Source: Camelus dromedarius (lineage: Eukaryota). From it: a stretch of 64,000 bases of DNA. Shown one piece after another: positions 38,801 to 42,542 of this stretch. The stretch spans positions 51,958,001 through 52,022,000 of the forward strand of contig NC_087436.1 of the NCBI RefSeq assembly GCF_036321535.1, read 5' to 3'. Position numbers and translations under genes: made by a program. The notes beneath the pieces were generated by a model. It was not told where the DNA came from and made no database searches. It worked only from the letters and a program-made list of their open reading frames with translations. Position 1 is the first letter of the stretch, and the number at the start of each line of letters is the position of its first letter.

Positions 38801-41188
38801 CGCAGTTGGATAGTGAGACTGGGGTTGTGTGGTGCTCAGGGCTGTGAAATGTCCTCGTCAGTCTGTGAGCCTTCTCTTTTGTATAATCAGATTGCATTTC
38901 TTTTTCTCTTTTTAAAAGCCTTGATGGGAATCCTTTTTTTTTTTTTTTTAAATCCATTTAAACAAGTGTGGAGAGAGTCCTCTCCAATCTCATTAAGTTT
39001 CATTAGATTTCTGTGAAATACATGCAGGCTGACAAGTTGTGATAGTCCCAATTTCATAGGTAGAGTCAGTTTCTCTCCCTTTTCTTTTTTGTCAGCGAGG
39101 TGTATAAAATGATGACATAGCTTGGACATGATTTCAAATAATTTCCTTTAAAGCTGTTCTCACAGAGCCACGTGTTTGGCATCTCTAAACATTTTACAGG
39201 CAGGCACCATGGTGCAGAATAGAGAGTTCTGACTCTGGGCTAGTTAAGCATGGAATCAGTCCATAGTAACCAGTTGGATACTAAACTACACTGGATTGAA
39301 TGTGGTACAACTTCAAGAAACAGCTATTAAAATATAGTAATCTCTTTTAAAATACAGGAAGTGTGTGTCGCATTACAGAACAGGATCTATTCTCTCTTGT
39401 ATTCCTGCGTGACTTTAGCGTGTGCCTGTGTAGGTGAGCTGTTGACTTCGCTCTCGTTTGCCTGGAGACAGCATACTCTTTGCTTGTGCTGTTAGTCAGT
39501 CCACAGTAGCACTATGGGAGGAAATGATTTCTCACTTCCTCTTATTCCATGGACTTGATTAAAGTGAACATGGTATGTCCTCTCAGTTGTACACTCTGTG
39601 TCCCTCCTCCTTTGTATGCTGTTTCTGGGTTGTTCAACTTGCAGATTGAAGAGGTTAATTATATAGCCTCCCTGTTTCACTTTTCTCTCATTAACATTAA
39701 AAAAGATGATTAAGCAACAAAAATAGGAGATCCTGTGGGAGTGTATAGACTCTAACTTACTTTTGTGTGGTGGAGGGTAGATTTTGTCTGGTGGAGAGTA
39801 AAGAAATGCATATTATTGGAGGTTGGCTCTGGTGTGTGACTATTCTCCAAAAGGTATTTTAAGAACATAAACTTGAATACGGGAAGCATGTTTTTTAAAT
39901 AACACATTGAAACTAAACATCAGATAGTTTAAAGGCAGAGTGACTAATGTGTTCCTCTAATGTTTCAAATGTTACCAATATTTGGAAAATGTTGTAATCT
40001 TGCCTTTGGCATAGGGAAGCCAGCATCTTTGTCAGTAAGAGACTGTGATCCAACCATCATGAGATAAAGCATCTTTGATCCTATACAAAAAATACCAGAG
40101 CCTTATCATATAAATCAAAACTATTGTCTTCCTTTGAATCCACTTTTTTTCTTTCAAGAATTAAGAGTTTTGAACTGGAAAGTGTATTAGCTATTTCTTC
40201 ATCAAAGATTCAGTGATTGAGAAAAGTGAGGGTTGGAAAAATTAAAGAACCACCGAAGACTACACAGACATCAAGGAAGGAGCTGGTATTTGATTAAGGA
40301 TATCCAGGTCCTGGCCAAGAATGATTGATTACCCATTACGCATTTCCACAGCTCTGTTCTGTAACTCAATGTGCTGTTTCTCAGCCTAGAGCTTATATTA
40401 GTGGTTCCAAGTGGATGGTATTTTCCATATCCTCTGGTGTTCGAACAAGAGCATGTGCTGTGTCTGTGAGGATGTGTGTGCACTCATGCGTGCATTAGTG
40501 TGGTACAGTGTGTGCATGTGTGTATGGTGTAAGGGAGTCAGGACAGTGGTGGGAGTTGGGCAGTTTTAGGAAAATGAGCAGAAGGGAAAATCAGAGAAAG
40601 ATTCATCTAGTGTGTAGGCTGCTGAAAGCTGGGATATAAGATAAAATGGTTGTTTTAAATGTTTTCCAGATTTTTGAACCGGTCTTGATTTAGAGCTGCC
40701 ATCAAGCTTTCTGCCCACTTTAACCCAGTAATATTCCATTGCATGAACTGCTTCTGTATTAGTGGATAATACGGTACAGATTCAGAGGCAGCAGAAGCCC
40801 TTGTTCAAGGATCAGAAACAGATTTCTTAATTTAATTCTGATAATGACACATACAGATAGTCTGGAAGTCATGTGAATCCATGATATGAGAAATGGATGG
40901 AGAATCCAGTTTTACTTTTTTTTTTTTTTTTTTTATTAAGCGTAACTTTTTCTTCCTGAACAATCTCAAGCACATGGAGTGATTAAACTTCATTTCTGTT
41001 TTCTGGTACTTATGTCCCCCAGATTTGATCTTTTCTGTTTTTCTTCAGAACTTTTAAATTCAACGAGTAGCATATAAATTTTGAATTGGAGATCAGTAGT
41101 TTAAAAAAAAATTAGCTTCCTGGCTATCTCACATAAGTGTGTTTTGTGTCTTAATTAACTGTGCTGATTTCTGGATGAAGAAACTTTT

Positions 41189-41361
41189 TTAATTTATTAT
41201 TATTTTTTTAATTAAAGTATAGTTGATTTACAATGTGTTAATTTCTGGTTACAGAATAGTGACTCAGTTATACATATATATATTCTTTTTCATAATAGGC
41301 TATTACAAGGTTCTGAGGATAGTTTACTGAGCTATACAGTAGGACCTTGCTGTTTATTTAT
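41189..41361 (-). mobile_element. Artiodactyl-type LINE-1 3' end, heavily 5'-truncated
   Basis: T-rich tail then 'aagtatagttgatttacaatgtgttaatttctgg...gtgactcagttatacatat...gctatacagtaggaccttg', the reverse complement of the type seen at 46022-46273. Confidence 0.9.
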
Positions 41362-41400
41362 TTCTACAGCCATACCACCCTGAATGTACCCGATCTCATC
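41362..41400 (+). pseudogene. 5S rRNA 5' fragment (nt 1-39) retrocopy
   Basis: TTCTACAGCCATACCACCCTGAATGTACCCGATCTCATC vs mammalian 5S GTCTACGGCCATACCACCCTGAACGCGCCCGATCTCGTC: 33/39 identical, five of six differences at CpG positions. Confidence 0.9.
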
Positions 41401-42399
41401 CAAAGTAACTTTTCATAGGGATGCAGAGATTTGCCTCATTGCAGGAAGTAAAGCCTAGGTCATCTCTTTTCCCTCTACCACACCATCTCCTGGTAGGAGG
41501 AGCCTTGCTTAAGTACACTCCCGTGGAGCCTCTGCAGGTTCATACGTGGATAACTTGGACCTGGGGCAAGCATCCATATTGGTTTGGATTCTTCTAAGGC
41601 TAAAACACAGTAATTCTATCCTTAGGTTTGTTTTTTTTTTTAAGTTTTAGAAAGGGTTTCTGAATATTACCAATATTGCATTTAAAGAAATTAATTGAAA
41701 ATAGTTGACTTATTCATGAAACATATTTCTGATGTTTCTCTTTATCCTTTTGTGTCTTTGGCTTACCCAAATCCTGGTTTTCTTTTTACATTTTTACCTA
41801 TTTGCATATCTGACTTCCCAGCATTCCAGATTTAAATTCAGACCTGATTTAAATTCAACCTGCTTATTTCTTCTTCAGCCCAGGCAGAAATCTGAACAAG
41901 GAGGGGAAAAAATGTAAAGCTGCCCATCAGACATGTAATGGGCCTCTCTAATAGACCTGATTGAATTGATTACTCTAGCAATTTACCCAGTGGAATAAAA
42001 AGTGTAAGGCACTCATCATTTAGCTATAAATTTATTCGTTGCAAAGAGCCACATCCCATTAATTTTATGTAATTTGGTAATTCCCAGTAGCTGCTGCTGA
42101 AGTATGTGTTCCCCCTTGGTTTTGTGTAGTGATGTTCTCTGGAGAGAGAACTCTATTGTGAATGTAAAGTTTAAAGGGCCAAAAGATTTTCAGAGCATTC
42201 ACAATTTGAACTGATGCTTTGATTCTGCTTATATTCTCACTCTTAGAAATGCTTTCCTCTGCTGTATTTCCACATCCAAGTATGTATAGAACTGTAGTGT
42301 AAAATGATGCACAAACTAGTTGTTCCTATGTTCCAGTAGCTCCCCAAAGAAGCGGTTGCTGCAGCCTCCTTTTACCCTAAACCTCCTTAATCAAACTAT

Positions 42400-42542
42400 T
42401 TTATATTAATTTTTTTATTCTTAAAAATCTGAGGTGGGTAATTAGGTTTATTTGTTTATTTTTTTAATGGCGGTACTGGAGATTAAACTCAGACCTCATG
42501 CATGCTAAGCAAGTGCTCTACCACTGAGCTATATCCTTCCCC
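42400..42542 (-). mobile_element. tRNA-derived SINE, vic-1-like
   Basis: 'gacctcatgcatgctaagcaagtgctctaccactgagctatatccttcccc' is the reverse complement of the head of the other three copies. Confidence 0.9.

Follow-up and report, generated by a model that had tools for sequence, protein, structure and literature searches.

A 5S rRNA fragment joined back-to-back to an L1 3′ end within one repeat pair

Organization of the locus

The window, that is, the whole 64,000-nucleotide stretch of DNA that was analysed, is G000:C1:51958001-52022000. In it, the 3′ end of an L1 and a 5′ piece of 5S rRNA in inverted orientation form a chimera, lying back-to-back in one repeat pair. The layout is given in Table 1, in which positions at the focal locus are those of the window. 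The L1 is 5′-truncated and has a poly(A) tail. The 5S piece is opposite in strand to the L1, with its 5′ end at the junction, and the two parts are joined directly, 5′ end to 5′ end, with no spacer. The chimera is a dead, single-copy, neutral fossil of L1 activity, for which no function is expected. In a search for a host gene among ORFs of at least 90 amino acids, as distinct from short exons, none of the 38 ORFs passed the Pfam cut-off. A tRNA-like element listed in Table 1 is probably the head of a tRNA-derived SINE, presumably of the family named vic-1.

Table 1. Features of the focal locus and of related loci in the genome
Feature	Position	Strand	Remarks
Left copy of likely target-site duplication	41176-41188	no strand	10/13 identical to right copy
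Decayed L1 poly(A) tail	41189-41209	-	T-rich on + strand; where 29 aligned copies cease agreeing and show T-rich tails of their own
Last ~154 bases of L1 3′ UTR	41210-41363	-	5′-truncated at junction; 81-88% identity to 29 genomic copies
L1 piece including tail	41189-41363	-	joined 5′-to-5′ to 5S
5S rRNA nt 2-39	41363-41400	+	3′-truncated, antisense to L1; 33/38 bases as in the genome's own 5S gene
Right copy of likely target-site duplication	41401-41413	no strand	CA follows; in the L1 direction the cut site is TG/AAAA
7-base inverted match	41172-41178 and 41396-41402		outer edge of left repeat and 5S/right-repeat border
tRNA-like element	42468-42536	-	Rfam tRNA, 33.9 bits
Tandem 5S rRNA gene array	G000:C8:4355027-4494817		61 pattern matches ~2.3 kb apart; source of the 5S reference
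L007, inverted chimera	G000:C1:103605133-103605166	-	perfect 16-bp duplication, first 5 bases = 5S nt 38-42
L064, inverted chimera	G000:C2:38040377-38040410	-	12 bp perfect duplication
L078, inverted chimera			duplication 11/13, first 3 bases = 5S nt 38-40; cut site TTTT/AA
L088, inverted chimera	G000:C5:61494864-61494897	+	9-bp duplication; 5S to ~nt 91; weakest case
L080, solo 5S nt 1-42	G000:C3:45912174-45912207	+	perfect 13-bp duplication ending TTTT

The 13-bp direct repeats proposed in the initial annotation are borne out. The mismatches between the two copies are at repeat positions 1, 2, and 6, and an 11-bp core matches at 10 of its 11 positions. When the left flank was held fixed, an equally good match was found in only 13 of 4000 random right flanks, and so the enclosing repeat beats chance; none of the right flanks of 61 other 5S copies matched as well. 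One target-site duplication, degenerate at 10/13, surrounds both the L1 and the 5S parts. The further claim that the repeat ends like an L1 endonuclease site stands in part: in the L1 direction the site is TG/AAAA, which is one base off the consensus TT/AAAA but is counted as an endonuclease motif among the human chimeras of Table S2 in Law et al. (2026, PMC13174262).

Two other proposals concerned the outer edge of the repeat, namely that the TG/CA difference arose from one decayed CpG and that the target matched the UGA of 5S rRNA. The two conflict in part, as follows. If a CpG was ancestral, the target would have started with CGA instead of TGA, and its pairing with 5S nt 40-42 would comprise two Watson-Crick pairs and a G-U wobble. 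If the target began with TGA, the CpG explanation falls. The target homology to 5S at the break is three bases with the left repeat copy and zero with the right, depending on which copy is ancestral. The 7-base inverted match at the edges of the insertion takes in both bases differing between the repeats; it is probably due to chance.

The L1 part was compared with genomic copies of its family: of 4406 candidates, 40 were scored and 29 aligned, with the focal locus excluded. Against the majority of the 29 copies, the L1 piece has 15 differences in 157 columns (41205-41361). In a longer copy of the same family, L026, the sequence continues into the coding region of L1 ORF2p, as a PDB sequence search shows (8uw3, E 6e-44). 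The same kind of search identified the L1 ORF2 fragments, of which none of four scored above the Pfam cut-off. The alignment and the ORF2p link confirm the original reading of a T-rich tail and an L1 3′ end on the minus strand inside the repeats. The L1 majority agrees with the locus up to 41363, a position that is also 5S nt 2, giving a junction overlap of one base. Two genomic L1 variants, L013 and L024, continue with bases resembling the start of 5S; therefore, a junction microhomology of 4-5 bases is possible if the L1 source resembled these variants. No second duplication was seen between the L1 and 5S parts in the junction alignment. Only one of the 13 matches to a query spanning the junction was full-length, and it was the focal locus itself.

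The 5S part was compared directly with the 5S gene of this genome (L044, from the array in Table 1), and it is this comparison that identifies the piece, because the Rfam score is below threshold: RF00001 gives 12.7 bits (E = 2) on the 5S piece, against a gathering score of 38, and is absent from a 4.5-kb Rfam scan around the locus, so that the Rfam confirmation suggested earlier was not obtained. In the direct comparison, all five changes are CpG transitions, at four of the five CpG sites, and there are no non-CpG changes in 28 sites. The best matches in 30 shuffled windows were 19-22 of 38. The assignment to 5S on the plus strand therefore holds by direct comparison, with the amendment that nt 1 (G), included originally, is absent. 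The CpG decay of the focal piece is in the highest class, to which 10 of 62 copies belong. No duplication flanking the 5S piece alone was found, the best adjacent match being 4 bases in length and 20 bases away.

Dispersed 5S copies and sister chimeras in the genome

The genome was surveyed with three strict patterns requiring 5S nt 8-39 to be intact except at CpGs, which gave 9, 16, and 95 places. After 61 array units were dropped, 59 dispersed copies were left, and three more from the junction-query search brought the sample to 62. That is, the sample consists of 5S copies with nt 8-39 intact, and older or shorter 5S pieces fall outside it.

In at least 5 of the 62 copies (4 of 61 without the focal locus), the 5S start adjoins the 3′ end of an antisense L1 and both lie within a duplication; the count is a lower bound given the L1 library of 29 loci supplemented by a by-eye look at 12 loci. 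Thus the scan for 5S pieces abutting an oppositely oriented L1 in one duplication, which had been proposed as a check, produced four further cases among the 5S copies of this genome: L007, L064, L078, and L088. L007 is cleaner than the focal locus, with 5S complete from nt 1 and a single CpG change. L064 and L088 have a second L1 3′-end type, likewise linked to ORF2p. For the first L1 type, to which this estimate applies, the local density of 17 pieces in 279 kb leads to an expectation of ~0.02 abutting ends by chance in 62 loci, versus two found besides the focal one. No L1 in the sense direction abutting a 5S 3′ end was found in the survey with the 29-locus library; with this library, sense chimeras involving other portions of L1 could escape notice.

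Two of the sister chimeras have additional features. In L088, the L1 3′ end has two T tracts separated by ~23 extra bases, which are possibly a short 3′ transduction. In L064, the 14 bases preceding the 5S start resemble the upstream flank of the 5S gene at 11 of 14 positions, and two of the differences are at CpGs; the next best likeness among the 62 copies is 6/14. The template of L064 was probably a 5′-extended 5S transcript or 5S gene DNA.

The remaining 57 copies are solo 5S pieces, and 47 of them have their own adjacent duplication of 12-23 bp. Their 5S sequences end at nt 39-42 in 32 cases and at nt 86-93 in 19.

Relation to published chimeras

The initial annotation placed an inverted chimera of two RNAs outside the known cases. 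This view is not sustained, since such chimeras have been published for snRNAs (PMC4476161) and human 5S/L1 chimeras have been catalogued (PMC13174262). Doucet et al. (2015, PMC4476161) drew a two-RNA twin-priming model for chimeras of L1 with U1, U2, U5, and U6, and described seven inverted, 3′-truncated snRNA chimeras as part of their Group IV. As at the focal locus, a 3′-truncated small RNA lies opposite a 5′-truncated L1 in one duplication, the endonuclease site fits only the L1 direction, and internal priming is placed at the second nick. The partner in their chimeras is U1, U2, U5, or U6, whereas that of the focal L1 is 5S rRNA, with a priming complementarity of 0-3 bases.

The closest counterparts are the 27 human 5S/L1 chimeras of Law et al. 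(Cell Genomics 2026, PMC13174262), which are typically antisense and 3′-truncated with the 5S start at the junction. By our own count of their Table S2, 23 of the 27 are antisense, and the antisense pieces include 5S:1-40, 2-40, and 3-40. Duplications of 7-17 bp were given for 20 of the 27, and twin priming is named for the antisense chimeras. The focal chimera has in common with them the 5S start at the junction, the antisense orientation, the short 5′ piece, and the TG/AAAA site. It differs in belonging to another, camel-like mammal and in being known from the sequence of one genome, whereas the human catalogue was checked by multi-species alignments (PMC13174262).

Solo tailless 5S copies were described by Noll et al. 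(2015, PMC5322556), who favoured internal priming. Like the focal 5S piece, these retropseudogenes are 5′-intact and 3′-truncated and have no poly(A), and in this genome their break is near nt 39-42. However, they have their own duplication at both ends (PMC5322556), whereas the focal 5S shares its duplication with the L1. In the U6/L1 chimeras attributed to template switching or ligation (PMC4476161, PMC13174262), a small RNA and a 5′-truncated L1 likewise lie within one duplication, but the two parts are in the same direction and the U6 is full-length, in contrast to the inverted, truncated 5S of the focal locus.

The focal chimera is thus an ordinary new instance of a published class. A search of largely open-access literature gave nothing on 5S/L1 chimeras in camels or on 5′-extended 5S retrocopies. 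Two findings were not encountered in the literature searched: the number of such chimeras in this lineage and, in L064, the 14-base stretch of 5S gene flank. With 5 of 62 sampled 5S copies, all antisense and with two L1 3′-end types, the survey carries a class catalogued in human over to another lineage of mammals. Such recurrence speaks for two-RNA twin priming as a feature common to mammalian L1 elements.

Origin of the chimera

We propose that the chimera arose in a single L1 insertion in which two RNAs were used for twin priming, a reading of the sequence to which we give a probability of about 0.85. The events would be as follows. A nick made by ORF2p in the top strand, following the T run, would have provided the end that primed on the L1 poly(A). 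The synthesis of L1 cDNA would have ended after ~175 bases. A second nick, on the bottom strand and ~13 bp away, would have primed on 5S rRNA near nt 39-40, where solo 5S retrocopies in the genome most often break off, and the 5S cDNA would have been extended to the 5′ end of the RNA. The two cDNAs would then have been joined via 1 to ~5 bases of microhomology, with gap filling producing the duplication, followed later by CpG decay and drift. Priming of the L1 poly(A) at the top-strand nick and internal priming of 5S at the bottom-strand nick had been suggested at the outset, and both the geometry and the four sister cases argue for this arrangement.

In favour of one insertion, the focal 5S piece is without a duplication of its own, unlike 47 of the 57 solo copies. 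Several features count against a single event. The L1 is 9.6% off the majority of its copies versus zero non-CpG change in the 5S, a discrepancy with a 6-13% chance at equal age by a hand calculation that has little weight. The duplication has three mismatches in 13, and the priming homology is 0-3 bases. A search for a paralogous empty site showed that each flank matched only itself in the genome, the flanks being single-copy.

An alternative, which we regard as unlikely, retains the single insertion but not the priming of 5S at the second nick. Instead, end-joining or a template jump would have led to the capture, at the 5′ end of the L1, of a free 5S cDNA or a 5S fragment cleaved at ~nt 39. 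Capture would suit the focal locus if the target began with C, since priming homology there may be nil, and the flank-like bases of L064 imply that mature 5S RNA was not always the template. Targeted 5S processing has also been raised as a source of truncated pieces (Law et al. 2026, PMC13174262). Yet the duplications of L007 and L078 begin with five and three bases of 5S exactly at the break, which supports internal priming, and 41 of the 47 solo copies with a duplication have at least one base of overlap between target and 5S at the break, a count that has no chance control. Capture, moreover, does not predict a single fixed orientation. Truncated 5S RNAs that would correspond to the break points were not found by Noll et al. 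(2015, PMC5322556), who prefer internal priming.

Two successive insertions are about as unlikely as capture. In this order of events, a tailless 5S copy would first have inserted alone, with a duplication whose end reads TTTT; an L1 would then have landed precisely on the TTTT/G border, in the opposite strand and without a duplication of its own. The L1 endonuclease can use TTTT/G as a site. Tailless solo copies that end at nt 39-42 are common, as noted above (32/57), and a substrate exists in L080, in which the TTTT is directly before the 5S; two insertions would also account for the missing 5S nt 1. However, TTTT is offered by only one of the 57 solo copies, yet chimeras make up 5 of 62. 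The chance expectation is ~0.02 for the L1 type measured, and each case would need an L1 lacking its own duplication and always antisense. The 27 human cases, compiled by inspection of multi-species alignments (Law et al. 2026, Table S2, PMC13174262), also stand against this order of events.

Three other candidates were rejected: a multi-copy 5S-derived SINE, by the presence of the full junction at one locus and by the different L1 break points of the sister chimeras; a solo tailless 5S retropseudogene, by the lack of its own flanking duplication at the focal locus; and a U6-type template-switch or ligation chimera, by the opposite strands of 5S and L1.

Of 24 sequencing runs listed, 20 contain 0.95 of the 194 words sampled across 1.9 kb (three organism labels, nine studies). 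The insert makes up ~1/8 of this 1.9-kb stretch, and thus the 20 listed runs, which are near-identical to the stretch, probably all carry it. The presence or absence of the focal chimera could be used to mark the lineage; by itself the chimera is of little importance.

It is tempting to speculate, quite tentatively, that the tailless 5S copies standing alone and the inverted 5S/L1 chimeras are alternative products of a single reaction. In this view, priming of 5S by ORF2p would take place at two shared hot spots (nt 39-42 and ~90), whichever nick supplied the primer; in about 1/15 of dispersed copies (4/61) L1 would have been copied as well, and the template could be a 5′-extended 5S, as in L064. 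If this were true, such loci would constitute a fossil assay of second-nick priming. In the solo copy L080, the second nick could have primed on 5S without any L1 cDNA being retained.
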